Source of the DNA: Mobula hypostoma | Taxonomy: Eukaryota | Length of the DNA stretch: 64,000 nucleotides | Direction: 5' to 3' | NCBI RefSeq assembly: GCF_963921235.1 | Contig: NC_086097.1 | Coordinates: forward strand, 140,060,001 to 140,124,000 | Shown: piece by piece, positions 9,107-49,787 of the stretch | Layout of the letters: each line of letters begins with the position of its first letter | How positions within the stretch are numbered: the stretch's first letter is position 1 | Made by a program: the position numbers and the translations under genes | Notes under the pieces: generated by a model | Database searches by the model: none | Seen by the model: the letters and a program-made list of their open reading frames with translations, nothing else | Told to the model about the DNA's origin: nothing

Positions 9107-9382
9107 CTAGGAAGGGAGTTGAGAAAAAGGACCGCAAAGGTAGTAATCTCGGGATTACTGCCTGTGCCACGCGACAGTGAGAGTAGGAATGCGATGAGGT
9201 GGAGGATAAATGCGTGGCTGAGGGATTGGAGCAGGGGGCAGGGATTCAAGTTTTTGGATCATTGGGACCTCTTTTGGCGCAGGTGTGACCTGTACAAAAA
9301 GGACGGATTACACTTAAATCCTAGGGCGACCAATATCCTGGCAGGGAGATTAGCGGGGGCTACTGAGGTGACTTTAAACTAG
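9107..9382 (+). pseudogene. CR1 ORF1 C-terminal fragment (SGNH/GDSL esterase-like)
   Basis: LGRELRKRTAKVVISGLLPVPR...FLDHWDLFW...YKKDGLHLN...EVTLN*; the DGLH motif is SGNH block V, typical of CR1 ORF1; N-terminus lost to truncation. Confidence 0.85.
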
Positions 9383-12300
9383 AATGGTTGGGGGGTGGGA
9401 ATCAAATTAAAGAGGCTAGGTGTGAGGAGGTTAGTTCACAACAGAGGGATGGGAACCAGTGCAGAGAGACAGAGGGGTGTAAAGTGAGCGTAGAAGCAAA
9501 AAGTACAAAGGGGAAAAGTAAAAGTGGCAGGCCGACAAATCCAGGGCAAGCATTAAAAAGGGCTAAGAGAGTTGTAAAAGAGTGCCTGAAGGCTTTATGT
9601 GTCAATGCAAGGAGCATTCGTAATAAGGTGGATGAATTGAAAGTGCAGATTGTTATTAATGATTATGATATAGTTGGGATCACAGAGACATGGCTCCAGG
9701 GTGACCAGGGATGGGAGCTCAACGTTCAGGGATATTCAATATTCAGGAGGGATAGACATGAAGGAAGGGGAGGTGGGGTGGCGTTGCTGGTTAAAAAAGA
9801 GATTAACGCAATAGAAAGGAAGGACATAAGCCGGGAAGATGTGGAATCGATATGGGTAGAGCTGCGTAACACTAAGGGGCAGAAGACGCTGGTGGGAGTT
9901 GTGTACAGGCCACCTAACAGTAGTAGTGAGGTCGGAGATGGTATTAAACAGGAAATTAGAAATGTGTGCAATAAAGGAACAGCAGTTATAATGGGTGACT
10001 TCAATCTACATGTAGACTGGGTGAATCAAATTGGTAAAGGTGCTGAGGAAGAGGATTTCTTGGAATGTATGCGGGATGGTTTTTTGAACCAACATGTCGA
10101 GGAACCAACTAGAGAGCAGACTATTCTGGACTGGGTTTTGAGCAATGAGGAAGGGTTAATTAGCGATCTTGTCGTGAGAGGCCCCTTGGGTAAGAGTGAC
10201 CATAATATGGTGGAATTCTTCATTAACATGGAGAGTGACGTAGTTAATTCAGAAACAAAGGTTCTGAACTTAAAGAGGGGTAACTTTGAAGGTATGAGAC
10301 ATGAATTAGCTAAGATAGACTGGCAAATGACACTTCAAGGATTGACGGTGGATATGCAATGGCAGGCATTTAAAGGTTGCATGGATGAACTACAACAATT
10401 GTTCATCCCAGTTTGGCAAAAGAATAAATCAAGGAAGGTAGTGCACCCGTGGCTGACAAGAGAAATTAGAGATAGTATCAATTCCAAAGAAGTAGCATAC
10501 AAATTAGCCAGAGAAAGTGGCTCACCTGAGGACTGGGAGAAATTCAGAGTCCAGCAGAGGAGGACAAAGGGCTTAATTAGGAAGGGGAAAAAAGATTATG
10601 AGAGAAAACTGGCAGAGAACATAAAAACGGACTGTAAAAGCTTTTATAGATATGTAAAAAGGAAAAGACTGATAAAGACAAATGTAGGTCCCCTGCAAAC
10701 AGAAACAGGTGAATTGATTATGGGGAGCAAGGACATGGCAGACCAATTGAATAATTACTTTGGTTCTGTCTTCACTAAGGAGGACATAAATAATCTTCCA
10801 GAAATAGTAAGGGACAGAGGGTCCAGTGAGATGGAGGAACTGAGCGAAATACATGTTAGTAGGGAAGTGGTGTTAGGTAAATTGAAGGGATTGAAGGCAG
10901 ATAAATCCCCAGGGCCAGATGGTCTGCATCCCAGAGTGCTTAAGGAAGTAGCCCAAGAAATAGTGGATGCATTAGTGATAATTTTTCAAAACTCGTTAGA
11001 TTCTGGACTAGTTCCTGAGGATTGGAGGGTGGCTAATGTAACCCCACTTTTTAAAAAAGGAGGGAGAGAGAAAAATGGGAATTATATGCCTGTTAGCATA
11101 ACGTCGGTGGTGGGGAAACTGCTTGAGTCAGTTATCAAGGATGTGATAACAGCACATTTGGAAAGCGGTGAAATGATTGGACAAAGTCAGCATGGATTTG
11201 TGAAAGGAAAATCATGTCTGACGAATCTCATAGAATTTTTTGAGGATGTAACTAGTAGAGTGGATAGGGGAGAACCAGTGGATGTGGTATATTTGGATTT
11301 TCAAAAGGCTTTTGACAAGGTCCCACACAGGAGATTAGTGTGCAAACTTAAAGCACACGGTATTGGGGGTAAGGTATTGGTGTGGGTGGAGAATTGGTTA
11401 GCAGACAGGAAGCAAAGAGTGGGAATAAACGGGACCTTTTCAGAATGGCAGGCGGTGACTAGTGGGGTACCGCAAGGCTCAGTGCTGGGACCCCAGTTGT
11501 TTACAATATATATTAATGACTTGGATGAGGGAATTAAATGCAGCATCTCCAAGTTTGCGGATGACACGAAGCTGGGTGGCAGTGTTAGCAGTGAGGAGGA
11601 TGCTAAGAGGATGCAGGGTGACTTGGATAGGTTGGGTGAGTGGGCAAACTCATGGCAGATGCAATTTAATGTGGATAAATGTGAGGTTATCCACTTTGGT
11701 GGCAAAAATACGAAAACAGATTATTATCTGAATGGTGGCCGATTAGGAAAAGGGGAGGTGCAACGAGACCTGGGTGTCATTATACACCAGTCATTGAAAG
11801 TGGGCATGCAGGTACAGCAGGCGGTGAAAAAGGCAAACGGTATGCTGGCATTTATAGTGAGAGGATTTGAGTACAGGAGCAGGGAGGTACTACTGCAGTT
11901 GTACAAGGCCTTGGTGAGACCACACCTGGAGTATTGTGTGCAGTTTTGGTCCCCTAATCTGAGGAAAGACATCTTTGCCATAGAGGGAGTACAAAGAAGG
12001 TTCACCAGATTGATTCCTGGGATGGCAGGTCTTTCATATGAAGAAAGACTGGATGAACTGGGCTTGTACTCGTTGGAATTTAGAAGATTGAGGGGGGATC
12101 TGATTGAAACGTATAAGATCCTAAAGGGATTGGACAGGCTAGATGCGGGAAGATTGTTCCCGATGTTGGGGAGGTCCAGAACGAGGGGTCACAGTTTGAG
12201 GATAGAGGGGAAGCCTTTTAGGACCGAGATTAGGAAAAACTTCTTCACACAGAGAGTGGTGAATCTGTGGAATTCTCTGCCACAGCAAACTGTTGAGGCC

Positions 12301-12387
12301 AGTTCATTAGCTATGTTTAAAAGGAAGTTAGATATGGCCCTTGTGGCTACAGGGGTCACGGGGTATGGAGGGAAGGCTGGGTTCTGA
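9373..12387 (+). CDS. CR1 ORF2: APE endonuclease + reverse transcriptase (no upstream AUG)
   Basis: Frame open 9367-12387. APE motifs VNARS, GITETW, VYRPP, GDFN, SDHN; RT motifs QHGF, YLDFQKAFDKV, GVPQGSVLGP, KFADDTK. The ORF-track start at 9388 is TTG; the first ATG is at 9991. Confidence 0.92.
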   Translation, partial: FKLEWLGGGNQIKEARCEEVSSQQRDGNQCRETEGCKVSVEAKSTKGKSKSGRPTNPGQALKRAKRVVKECLKALCVNARSIRNKVDELKVQIVINDYDIVGITETWLQGDQGWELNVQGYSIFRRDRHEGRGGGVALLVKKEINAIERKDISREDVESIWVELRNTKGQKTLVGVVYRPPNSSSEVGDGIKQEIRNVCNKGTAVIMGDFNLHVDWVNQIGKGAEEEDFLECMRDGFLNQHVEEPTREQTILDWVLSNEEGLISDLVVRGPLGKSDHNMVEFFINMESDVVNSETKVLNLKRGNFEGMRHELAKIDWQMTLQGLTVDMQWQAFKGCMDELQQLFIPVWQKNKSRKVVHPWLTREIRDSINSKEVAYKLARESGSPEDWEKFRVQQRRTKGLIRKGKKDYERKLAENIKTDCKSFYRYVKRKRLIKTNVGPLQTETGELIMGSKDMADQLNNYFGSVFTKEDINNLPEIVRDRGSSEMEELSEIHVSREVVLGKLKGLKADKSPGPDGLHPRVLKEVAQEIVDALVIIFQNSLDSGLVPEDWRVANVTPLFKKGGREKNGNYMPVSITSVVGKLLESVIKDVITAHLESGEMIGQSQHGFVKGKSCLTNLIEFFEDVTSRVDRGEPVDVVYLDFQKAFDKVPHRRLVCKLKAHGIGGKVLVWVENWLADRKQRVGINGTFSEWQAVTSGVPQGSVLGPQLFTIYINDLDEGIKCSISKFADDTKLGGSVSSEEDAKRMQGDLDRLGEWANSWQMQFNVDKCEVIHFGGKNTKTDYYLNGGRLGKGEVQRDLGVIIHQSLKVGMQVQQAVKKANGMLAFIVRGFEYRSREVLLQLYKALVRPHLEYCVQFWSPNLRKDIFAIEGVQRRFTRLIPGMAGLSYEERLDELGLYSLEFRRLRGDLIETYKILKGLDRLDAGRLFPMLGRSRTRGHSLRIEGKPFRTEIRKNFFTQRVVNLWNSLPQQTVEASSLAMFKRKLDMALVATGVTGYGGKAGF

Positions 12388-12420
12388 GTTGGATGATCAG
12401 CCATGATCATAATAAATGGC

Positions 12421-12459
12421 GGTGCAGGCTCGAAGGGCCGAATGGCCTACTCCTGCACC
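12421..12459 (+). other. CR1 3'-UTR stem-loop
   Basis: GGTGCAGG...CCTGCACC outer stem enclosing a GGCC-GAAT-GGCC hairpin, immediately before the microsatellite tail; identical in the copy at 49039-49787. Confidence 0.7.
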
Positions 12460-12485
12460 TATTTTCTATGTTTCTATGTTTCTAT

Positions 12486-29554: not shown

Positions 29555-29800
29555 GACACCATTTTCAGAGCCCTTACACCTACTCCTGACCCTTGGGACA
29601 CACCTGTACCTCTGCCCCAACAATGACACTCAGGACACACACCTGTACCTCTATACCCAAATGATGATGCTTAAGACACACACTTATACACTTATACCCT
29701 CTGCTGACATGCTGACACTCAGGACAAATACCTGCACCTCTACACCCACTGGTGACCCTTGGGGCACACACCTGTACCCATGAACCTACTAGAACACCCT
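29555..29800. repeat. Degenerate ~40-bp tandem repeat next to the exon-13 donor
   Basis: GACACACACCTGTACCTCT-like units repeated 5-6 times. Confidence 0.65.
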
Positions 29801-29812
29801 AGTGACACCCAC

Positions 29813-30149
29813 CTGTAGAACAAGACATAATCGACCTTGGAATGACAGTTCTTGAAGGGCCAGGATTTGAGTCTCTGGCACTCTCTGTGAGCACGGAACT
29901 TGACTTTCACAGTCCCAGAGCAGACGTGAGGCCAGAGCCTTCGCTGGGCCTGTTTACACACTTTGTTCCTCTCCACACGCCACGACTCAGCAAAGGCATC
30001 CACATCAAACTTGAAACTGCCGTCTCCACCGATCAGGTCATCCCGTTTGTGTCCGTTGTAGTTTCCGCACAGACCGCAGAGTTTGCCCTTCAGTGAGGGA
30101 GCTGCCATAACCTCGACAAAACTGTCTCCATCCCACGAGATCTCAATAC
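29813..30149 (-). CDS. BMPER: BMPER-like exon 13 (VWD C-part / C8 start)
   Basis: GATAG|(G)[43 protein letters not shown]...[11 protein letters not shown](R)|GTGGGT; 337 nt. Confidence 0.96.
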
Positions 30150-30224
30150 CTATCAACACAAGATCTGTTACTGACCATACACTGTTCCCTCCCTTCACAC
30201 CCAGGCCAACAACCATTGTGTAGA

Positions 30225-30520
30225 ACCATGGGAGTGTCACGCACCATGTCTGGTCCTCGCACCCCACTACAGTACTGAGAGTGTATCACATCATCGTTAG
30301 CCTGGTCTATCCCTCACTGCAGAAGGGGAGTGTTGTACACCCTCAGTATGGCCCTCACACCCCCACTACAGTACTGAGAGTGTATCACATCATCGTTAGC
30401 CTGGTCTGCCCCTTCACTGCAGAAAGGGAGTGTCACACACCCTCAGTCTGGTTCATTCCCCCCCCCCCCCCACTGCATTACTGAGGGAGAGTCACATTAC
30501 CCTCGGTCTGGTCTGCCCTC
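30225..30520. repeat. ~99-bp tandem duplication in intron 12
   Basis: CCCCACTACAGTACTGAGAGTGTATCACATCATCGTTAGCCTGGTCT at about 30262 and 30361, with degenerate flanking half-units. Confidence 0.8.
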
Positions 30521-41303: not shown

Positions 41304-42329
41304 CTGCAGAGAAGAGACAAAGACTGGTGAAGGTGAAGATTGGTTGAGATCACAAGGTGATGACCCACCTTCCTCTGCACCTGCTAAGAACCATTCCCAA
41401 TGGGAGGCCATTCAGCCCACTGAATCCGTACTAGCACTTGAAAATTGCACGAGTTTCCTTCATGCTCCATAAGTCTGTGTATGTTGGTGTTTCCAGTGTT
41501 ATCCCAGCTCCCCTGTAAGGTTCCTGCTAAAGCTATTTTTACCGTCCTTTTCGACAATGTCCCAGATTAGAATAATTTGTTGCTTCAATAAACTCCTGTC
41601 TCTCTATGCCCTTGTCACCACCCTTCCTACTACAGGACAGAGGGGCTCTCCCCATTAGCCCCTCAGTGGTTCAGAATGGTTTGATTAAATCACCTTGTAC
41701 CATTCTCTGCCCCAGTCTCTCCTCGGATCTGCACCTCTCGTGCTGGGACCATTCCTGTAGATCTCACCTCCCCCTACAGGGCCATCTACTGGTGATATTT
41801 TCATCATCTGTAGTGTTCACCCTGTGTCAACGTAAAATTTGGTGGCTTGATTTCTGCAAAGATGGACTAATGTCAGAAGGGACCAAAATCCAGAAGCCCT
41901 ATCAGTGGTTCTGTGTTACTGGAGATTGACCGGAAGGATAGCTGAAAACAAGGGCTTAAGTTACACAGAAAAAACCGAGGGGTGATCTGAGCACAGTTTC
42001 CATGCTGTTGTAAGGTGTGTATGTATGTGAGTGTGAGTGTGAGAGCAAGAGTGAGAGAGTGAGAGAGTGTGAGTGTGAGTCAAGGAGTATGCAAGAGTGA
42101 CTAAGTGAGTCTGTGCCTTTGTCAGTGAGAGAGAGAGCTGCTGTTTCAGGGTATAGGTCTACATGCCTGACAGTCAGGGACAGAAGTGAAAAGTGTTCAA
42201 TCCAGCCCTAATTCAGTGTGAGTTTGGGGACACAAATCATTCTGGGATAAATTGACGGACTACATCTTGAGCAAAGACACAGGAAGTGGCTTCAGACTAG
42301 CCCATAGATCGTGTAACAGATGCATAGAC

Positions 42330-42540
42330 ATGTGTACAGACACACAGACAGGTGCACGGACACACAGACAGGCACTTAGGTGAGGCAGACAGATGCATAT
42401 GTACACAGACAGACATACAGACAAGAACAGGAACACATGCACACAGACACACAGACAGGTGCACAGACAGACAGGTGTACAGACACACAGACAGGCATAC
42501 AGACAAGGCAGAGGGGTGCACAGACACACGGACAGACTGT
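42330..42540. repeat. CA/GA-rich low-complexity repeat just 3' of exon 3 on the pre-mRNA
   Basis: CACAGACAGG-like reiterations; a GT/GA microsatellite also lies at about 42015-42140. Confidence 0.75.
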
Positions 42541-42553
42541 AACCTGGAAGCAC

Positions 42554-42653
42554 CTTTGCACTTCTCGCAGCAGGCTCCGGTCTGTTTAATGACGAGTGCA
42601 CAGTGCTTGGGCAGTGGGGGACACTTCTCTCTGGTACATCGCACCTCTTTGTT
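42554..42653 (-). CDS. BMPER: BMPER-like exon 3 (VWC1 C-half)
   Basis: [46 protein letters not shown]; 100 nt; weak donor but phase fits exon 4. Confidence 0.92.
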
Positions 42654-43498
42654 CTGCAAAGGAAATGAACAATGAACAGGGAACTCAGAGTCGAAGGAAC
42701 ATGTAATCACAGCAACACTGGAGGAGAGGCAGGAGGAGGAGTGGGGAGTCCTGGGGTGTGAGGATCACCAGGAAATGGGGAAAGTGAGGCGGAAGAGGCC
42801 ATGGAGGACAGTGGGAGGGACGGCAGAATAAAGGGGTGACAATGGAGGGAGGGGGAGACAATGGAGGGGAATGGGGGTGGGGGTGGGAATGGGGACAAAA
42901 TGCAAGGCAAGTCCCTCTTTGTTCTCTTAGAGACATGCAGTTCTTTATATTCCAGCACAGACAAAGCCTACACGACACAGGGATTAAATTATGCTCACTA
43001 AAATTGGTCCAAATTTTGTAATTTGAAACTAGGACCTGACCAATCTTCCTGCACTGAGGGCACTGGGGTTGAATGAGGGGGAGACGATACACACCCCCAC
43101 AAGCTACTGTACATCCCAGGAAATCTCCTGTATTGACTCTACACAAGGAAGTTTTGGCCATTGCTCTGGTTTAAATACTCCAGGTTTCAGACTATAACAC
43201 AGCAGAGTATTGCACAGGAACAGACCCTTTGGTTTACTATGTCTATACTGACCATGATGCCAATTTAAACTAACACCATCTGCCTTCACATGGTCTGTAT
43301 CCCTCCATCCCCTGCCTGTTCATGTGTCCGTCTAACTGCCTCTTAAATGTTGCTGTCATTTCTTCTTCCCCCATTTCCCCTGGCAAAGCATTCCAGGTAT
43401 CCTCTAGATCTCTTTTAAACTTACCCCCTTTCACTTTGAATACATGACCTCAGTATTTGACATTTCCAGCTTTGGAAAAAGACTCTGGCTATCTGCCC

Positions 43499-49038: not shown

Positions 49039-49787
49039 GATTAGGAAAAGGGGAGGTGCAACGGGACCTGGGTGTCATTATACACCAGTCATTGAAAGTG
49101 GGCATGCAGGTACAGCAGGCGGTGAAAAAGGCGAATGCTATGCTGGCATTTATAGCAAGAGGATTCAAGTACAGGAGCAGGGAGGTACTACTGCAGTTGT
49201 ACAACGCTTTGGTGAGACCACACCTGGAGTATTGTGTGCAGTTTTGGTCCCCTAATCTGAGGAAAGACATCCTTGCCATAGAGGGAGTACAAAGGAGGTT
49301 CACCAGATTGATTCCTGGGATGGCAGGACTTTCATATGAAGAAAGACTGGATGAACTGGGCTTGTACTCGTTGGAATTTAGAAGATTGAGGGGGGATCTG
49401 ATTGAAACGTATAAAATCCTAAAGGGATTGGACAGGCTAGATGCAGGAAGATTGTTCCCGATGTTGGGGAAGTCCAGAACGAGGGGCCACAGTCTGAGGA
49501 TAGAGGGGAAGCCTTTTAGGACCGAGATTAGGAAAAACTTCTTCACACAGAGAGTGGTGAATCTGTGGAATTCTCTGCCACAGGAAACAGTTGAGGCCAG
49601 TTCATTGGCTATATTTAAGAGGGAGTTAGATATGGCCCTTGTGGCTATAGGGGTCAGGGTGTATGGAGGGAAGGCTGGGGCAGGGTTCTGAGTTGGATGA
49701 TCAGCCATGATCATAATAAATGGCGGTGCAGGCTCGAAGGGCCGAATGGCCTACTCCTGCACCTATTTTCTATGTTTCTATGTTTCT
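49039..49787 (+). mobile_element. Second young CR1 copy of the same family (3' ~750 bp)
   Basis: Aligns to 11741-12485 with about 27 substitutions plus a 6-bp indel by eye; same tail. Confidence 0.95.

Follow-up and report, generated by a model that had tools for sequence, protein, structure and literature searches.

In birds, reptiles and cartilaginous fish, CR1 elements rank among the major repeats. A copy in Mobula hypostoma raises the question of how ribosomes reach its second open reading frame (ORF2), which encodes endonuclease and reverse transcriptase and has no AUG ahead of the endonuclease motifs. The translation of the second ORF in bicistronic LINE mRNAs has been called 'not clear' (PMC3708506, available sections). 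We analysed the junction between ORF1 and ORF2 in this copy and in its relatives.

The element and its setting

The window (the whole 64,000-nt stretch of DNA that was analysed) contains a 3.4-kb CR1 LINE (~9107-12485) that has inserted into a C-rich satellite with a period of ~45 bp. Its parts are as follows.

9107..9382, + strand: 3' remnant of CR1 ORF1, the last 91 codons of an SGNH esterase domain, ending Leu-Asn-stop
9367..12387, + strand: ORF2 frame (−1), a single open frame of 1006 codons that opens two codons ahead of the heptamer described below
~9643-10203, + strand: APE endonuclease in ORF2 (Pfam)
~11062-11709, + strand: reverse transcriptase in ORF2 (Pfam)
12388..12485, + strand: 3' UTR with about three TTTCTATG units at its end (12463-12485), after which the satellite resumes

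The CR1 label is one that we assume from the anatomy of the element (esterase ORF1, APE-RT ORF2, tandem 3' tail) and from the general features of the clade. CR1 elements characteristically have a 3' end of short tandem repeats and are truncated at the 5' end; both features are present here, together with an ORF2 carrying APE and RT and an esterase ORF1. In its APE-RT ORF2, short tandem tail and 5' truncation the element thus resembles the esterase-ORF1 CR1 clade. ORF2 matched Pfam Exo_endo_phos and RVT_1 above cut-off, and the SGNH/GDSL fragment in ORF1 fell just below it (31.2 bits, cut-off 32.9). The ORF1 remnant matches the terminal part of a 311-aa Mobula hypostoma protein at 99% identity; at full length this protein carries PF13472, and in a tree of esterase ORF1 only it groups with vertebrate sequences. 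The copy starts inside ORF1 at ~9107, leaving 91 of ~311 ORF1 codons. Such a truncated copy cannot make ORF1 itself; any mechanism discussed here applies to the full-length source element of the family.

A second 3' fragment of the same family lies at 49039-49784 (95.6% identical, same 3' end and tail), and about ten older CR1-like fragments occur between 40500 and 58000 of the window. The satellite (~900-29000) has a GC skew of ~−0.82, a ~45-bp period with variants and stop-free + strand frames of thousands of codons. Cys-rich frames on the − strand at 29743-30285 and 42300-42764 resemble host-gene exons with von Willebrand-type domains.

The ORF1/ORF2 junction in this copy

The features around the junction are these.

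9364-9366, + strand: TGA bounding the ORF2 frame upstream
9373..9379, + strand: slippery heptamer T_TTA_AAC, in X_XXY_YYZ phase of ORF1 (ACT TTA AAC TAG)
9380..9382, + strand: ORF1 stop TAG, directly 3' of the heptamer
9382..9585, + strand: linker in the −1 frame, 68 codons from the shift site to the endonuclease, ATG-free in this copy
9386-9387 (GG), 9390-9395 (G6) and 9397-9399 (GGG), + strand: G tracts past the stop
9390..9395, + strand: G-run 7 nt past the stop and 10 nt past the heptamer, a putative unstructured stimulator
9484..9486, + strand: in-frame GTG ahead of the endonuclease, replaced by ATG in other copies of the family (counter-evidence)
9601, 9676 and 9901, + strand: endonuclease motifs VNARS, GITETW and VYRPP, all upstream of ATG 9991
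9991..9993, + strand: first in-frame ORF2 ATG, codon 209, inside the endonuclease

A sequence-only reading had placed T TTA AAC at 9373-9379 in phase directly ahead of the ORF1 stop, ORF2 in the −1 frame opening at 9367 after a TGA, and the first ORF2 ATG at 9991, past VNARS, GITETW and VYRPP. Our reading of the sequence bears out each of these points, the −1 frame being open over 9367-12387. As in canonical −1 programmed frameshifting, the heptamer lies in 0-frame phase within the overlap and the −1 frame is open onward from it. The 3.4-kb element contains seven X_XXY_YYZ words and the window, on both strands, nine words of heptamer plus stop; the heptamer in one copy is therefore weak evidence, and the case beyond chance rests on the relatives rather than on this copy. 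Other TTTAAACTAG-like words in the window were set aside, as they do not lie at ORF junctions.

Conservation of the junction in relatives

A metagenome scan yielded 44 loci, and the junction could be read in 24 of them, 21 being CR1-type; the remaining 20 end ahead of the junction or lack an ORF1 end. Three readable loci (L021, L035 and L038) belong to another lineage and were kept apart. Viral-contig scans returned no relatives. When the CR1 junctions were aligned for TTTAAAC followed by a stop, as the earlier reading had proposed, the heptamer was exact in 18 of the 21; L008 reads G_TTA_AAC, and the motif is decayed in L014 and L037. A stop directly follows the heptamer in all intact junctions, as TAG or, in L028 and L031, TGA (the stop is mutated in L014, L025 and L040). 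G_UU(A) is the arterivirus variant of the heptamer (PMC5009743, available sections).

Codon usage was controlled in 16 rows, made up of the window and 15 loci whose stop is clear. At the ORF1 end the codons are fixed among synonyms (Leu TTA in 15/15, Asn AAC in 16/16), and ten other near-invariant residues use mixed codons in the same rows, for example nine AAT and seven AAC for Asn and five different codons for Leu. The codon ahead of Leu varies (ACT, TGT, TAT, GCT, CAT, TCT, TTT) and ends in T in 15 of 16 rows. The joint background chance of this combination is 0.013 per lineage. The junctions fall into five groups (the window, A, B, L008 and L028) with ~20-47% identity over the last 70 residues. 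For the three full-heptamer groups other than the window, the chance is roughly 2 in a million, a figure that is optimistic because of shared ancestry (though the control codons are scrambled) and because related lineages are not fully independent. The codon pattern indicates that the heptamer is conserved beyond amino-acid need.

Thirteen rows have both an ORF2 match and a CR1-type stop. ORF2 is −1 in 10 of them; in L007, L023 and L031 it is +1, with further stops or indels. In five junctions the ORF2 frame opens 13-16 nt ahead of the stop, which leaves no room for an upstream start. Group A has the heptamer in all 10 of its junctions; in an 80-row esterase tree it lies within turtle and squamate sequences, and we take it to be bird CR1. 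The separate lineage (L021:2938-2950, L035:2670-2690, L038:735-755) consists of esterase-ORF1 LINEs without the heptamer, in which an AUG overlaps the ORF1 end; it forms a natural stop-start control.

ORF1 protein tails

Among the 120 homologues listed, DGxHL is kept in 92, and Leu-Asn is the terminal pair in 82 of those. Their tails from DGxHL to the end range from 22 to 39 residues, yet still end LN. The 79 homologues with a 26-residue tail have Leu at position 25 in 78 and Asn at position 26 in all 79, with positions 19-24 variable. The ORF1 proteins of relatives terminate at the Asn, and the named hosts include sharks, rays, frogs, turtles, lizards and snakes. In four proteins whose ORF1 has slipped frame by mutation (P0011, P0027, P0048, P0152), the tail reads FKL-x-x-x-G, the −1 frame.

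In two RefSeq ray gene models, P0027 and P0048, an indel specific to the copy carries ORF1 in frame into ORF2; the name of one, 'hydroxyacid oxidase 2 isoform X1', is probably a mis-annotation. Two other CR1 ORF1 proteins, P0038 and P0088, are recorded as coming from Pseudomonas aeruginosa and from a flatworm, which probably reflects host contamination.

A more distant set comprised 132 new representatives, of which 72 have the motif and a short tail, giving 60 distinct tails. Asn is terminal in 33 of these (LN 24, GN 5, SN 2, KN 1, EN 1) and absent from the end of the other 27, including two whole clades of the 80-row esterase tree. The GN and KN rows form one supported clade in that tree, with an LN member inside. 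Hosts are named for 2 of 20 distant proteins, both turtles. U_UUA_AAC, G_GGA_AAC and A_AAA_AAC are among the most shifty heptamers (PMC5009743, available sections), and LN, GN and KN are the ends that these three would encode. Heptamer covariation in the GN and KN types is a prediction from protein sequence. Four loci from scans for GN-type DNA were rejected, with no ORF2 match and no heptamer; they apparently encode unrelated SGNH proteins.

Start codons and within-family variation

Contigs of four runs (X1, X5, X10 and X16) were compared over 9200-9700, where contig depth is not copy number. None of the 40 variants listed, out of 61, falls in 9357-9414. Two further ray subfamilies have AGT or GGT ahead of TTA AA (loose contig ends), and X10 and X16 share a 27-nt in-frame linker insertion at 9557. 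The GTG at 9484 becomes ATG (G>A) in 95% of X5 depth and 17% of X1 depth, and in none of X10 or X16 among the variants listed, although neighbouring variants could alter the codon. A family AUG ahead of the APE domain, which the earlier reading had named as a finding against its proposal, therefore exists as the dominant form in X5 and a minor one in X1, while X10 and X16 keep GTG. Its statement that AUG initiation could not yield a functional endonuclease holds for this copy and several lineages but not for all.

Nine junctions have a −1 linker, 30-86 codons long; five of these linkers contain an AUG, against 5.4 expected at 2.2% Met, and the positions are scattered rather than shared. L003 and L005 have a long open ORF2 frame with no AUG before the endonuclease. 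No AUG overlaps or adjoins the ORF1 stop in this copy or in group B. In group A (n = 10), an ATG lies 2 nt past the stop in L001, L002, L006 and L012 and a GTG in L004 and L010, with neither in L013, L018, L040 and L044. Group A may use reinitiation as well, though it keeps the heptamer throughout.

A conserved G-run and no conserved fold

The earlier reading also proposed a G-quadruplex or hairpin as stimulator, and this part of it is not supported. No canonical stimulatory hairpin or pseudoknot was found 5-9 nt downstream: five windows around the site folded no better than shuffles (z −0.24 to 0.58), and a consensus fold of 15 aligned junctions gave 0 consensus pairs. A G-quadruplex was predicted in only 3 of 18 junctions (0-3 GGG runs in 46 nt), so it is not conserved. 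Rfam returned no match at gathering level (one hit at E 0.45, far below), and the best duplexes of the G-run with long-range partners lay at differing places in eight loci, none shared. A short inverted repeat can be seen by eye ~25-55 nt past the ORF1 stop in L006, L012, L013 and L018; this repeat of several group A junctions lies beyond the usual stimulator distance and is absent from other groups.

What is conserved is the G-run itself. Alignment columns G26-G30 are at least 90% conserved over 15 junctions, and a run of at least four G lies exactly 7 nt past the stop in 12 of 18 junctions and 6-9 nt past it in 15 of 18 (background 0.029 for a 6-nt slot). The run spans three −1 codons, the first residue of which varies, so its conservation resembles that of a nucleotide signal, although a requirement for Gly may also account for it.

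Weighing the explanations

On these comparisons, we consider it likely that ORF2 is translated by programmed −1 ribosomal frameshifting at T_TTA_AAC, giving an ORF1-ORF2 fusion. Fixation of the heptamer, the open −1 frame and the lack of a conserved start support the slippage and fusion that the sequence-only reading proposed, and the G-quadruplex or hairpin stimulation that it attached to them is not supported. Against frameshifting is the absence of a conserved downstream RNA structure, unlike classical −1 signals. The ATG at 9484 in X5 and X1, the ATG or GTG just past the stop in group A and the 27 of 60 distant tails that lack a terminal Asn also count against it. A missing AUG does not by itself imply frameshifting either, because mammalian L1 is thought to translate its ORF2 independently of AUG (PMC5009743, available sections). 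This and the UAAUG stop-start overlap of SART1 (PMC3708506, available sections) make termination-reinitiation the main rival, although we judge it improbable. Translation would then end at the TAG and begin again close by, in the −1 frame, at an AUG if there is one and otherwise at any codon; ORF2 would be a separate protein, and the conserved letters would act as a signal for reinitiation. The stop is indeed always adjacent to the heptamer, and an ATG or GTG lies 2 nt past it in 6 of the 10 group A junctions; in other junctions, this copy included, that +5 codon is TGG, TCG, GCA, TCC or CCG. Reinitiation also leaves unexplained the exact X_XXY_YYZ form in ORF1 phase, the constant −1 position of ORF2 in intact copies, and the GN and KN termini.

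It is very unlikely that the source element had an ordinary in-frame linker AUG, such as the ATG at 9484, that was lost in this copy. The prevalence of that ATG in X5 and its presence in X1 speak for such a start, as do the AUGs in five of nine linkers; yet GTG is kept in 83% of X1 depth and in the spanning contigs of X10 and X16, the number of linker AUGs is at chance level with unshared positions, the frame continues without a stop 5' of these AUGs as far as the heptamer, and L003 and L005 have long ORF2 frames that are AUG-free before the endonuclease. We give still less credence to the motif being kept for protein reasons, as an ORF1-terminal Leu-Asn, or as a DNA or RNA site unrelated to decoding. 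A C-terminal Leu-Asn could hypothetically pack on the esterase fold, but synonymous codons are fixed only at the terminal Leu-Asn, the end remains LN despite the variable tail length, and Leu, Gly and Lys are chemically dissimilar. The slimmest probability falls to a joining of the frames in the RNA itself, either through use of the AG in TAG as a splice acceptor or through slippage of the polymerase on the G-run. CTAG is acceptor-like, and a 1-nt G-run deletion makes up 3% of X1 depth in genomic contigs. However, there is no polypyrimidine tract upstream, TGA replaces TAG in L028 and L031, and the G-run is 3' of the ORF1 stop, so that an indel in it cannot join the frames.

Under −1 frameshifting, ribosomes finishing ORF1 would slip back one base on UUUAAAC, with tRNA-Leu and tRNA-Asn re-pairing on UUU AAA. 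In place of a hairpin, the neighbouring stop codon and the G-run would make the ribosome pause. Most ribosomes would terminate; those that slipped would read the linker and then the endonuclease and reverse transcriptase, passing from Thr-Leu-Asn of ORF1 to Leu-Glu-Trp of ORF2. The product would be an esterase-linker-endonuclease-reverse transcriptase fusion, made in low yield beside abundant ORF1 protein. Slippage, fusion and the parts played by the stop codon and the G-run are inferred from the sequence comparisons above.

Relation to known systems

Frameshifting in LINEs is not new, since ORF2 of Dictyostelium TRE5-A and TRE3-A is stated to require a −1 frameshift (PMC5911963, available sections). 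These elements resemble CR1 in being APE-type non-LTR elements with two ORFs and an APE-RT ORF2; they differ in clade and host, and their ORF1 is described there without an esterase. L1 and SART1 share with CR1 a bicistronic LINE mRNA and a low ORF2 yield. Unlike CR1, L1 has a spacer and AUG-independent ORF2 initiation (PMC5009743), and the SART1 overlap is followed by downstream structure (PMC3708506); the available sections of these two papers describe a slippery heptamer for neither.

IBV and other coronaviruses use the same heptamer, U_UUA_AAC, in the same phase and with the same order of structural and then enzyme products (PMC5009743, available sections), whereas CR1 has no detectable hairpin or pseudoknot, a stop that is always adjacent and a G-run 10 nt downstream. 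A looser analogy is with the arterivirus PRRSV, in which a protein-bound, unstructured CCCANCUCC motif lies 11 nt 3' of the shift site (PMC5009743, available sections). The putative CR1 stimulator is likewise a short unstructured motif at a fixed distance (10 nt against 11 nt), but it is G-rich and is not known to be bound by a protein. No report of CR1 frameshifting was found in the literature searched, which included few subscription papers; two 1997 descriptions of CR1, from chicken and turtle, may already suggest it. The available parts of 10.1101/788562 and PMC11835228 hold nothing on CR1 frameshifting.

Implications for CR1 and for recoding

A broader and more tentative proposal is that CR1 elements across jawed vertebrates and in more distant hosts share an ancient structure-free signal, composed of heptamer, stop, 7 nt and G-run. 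Pausing would be caused by termination and by a factor binding the G-run, the product would be a Gag-Pol-like esterase-APE-RT fusion, and lineages would have swapped U_UUA_AAC, G_GGA_AAC and A_AAA_AAC.

Collectively, the alignments argue that the junction carries a genuine signal of deep conservation, for which a −1 frameshift site in an unusual structure-free context is the best reading. A conserved signal of 20 nt makes the question of ORF2 translation directly testable by point mutants. If this reading is true, the ORF2 protein of CR1 would be joined to ORF1 in a fusion, any consensus annotated with ORF2 beginning at its first Met would be truncated or wrong, and a structure-free −1 signal would be a new type of stimulator for the recoding field.
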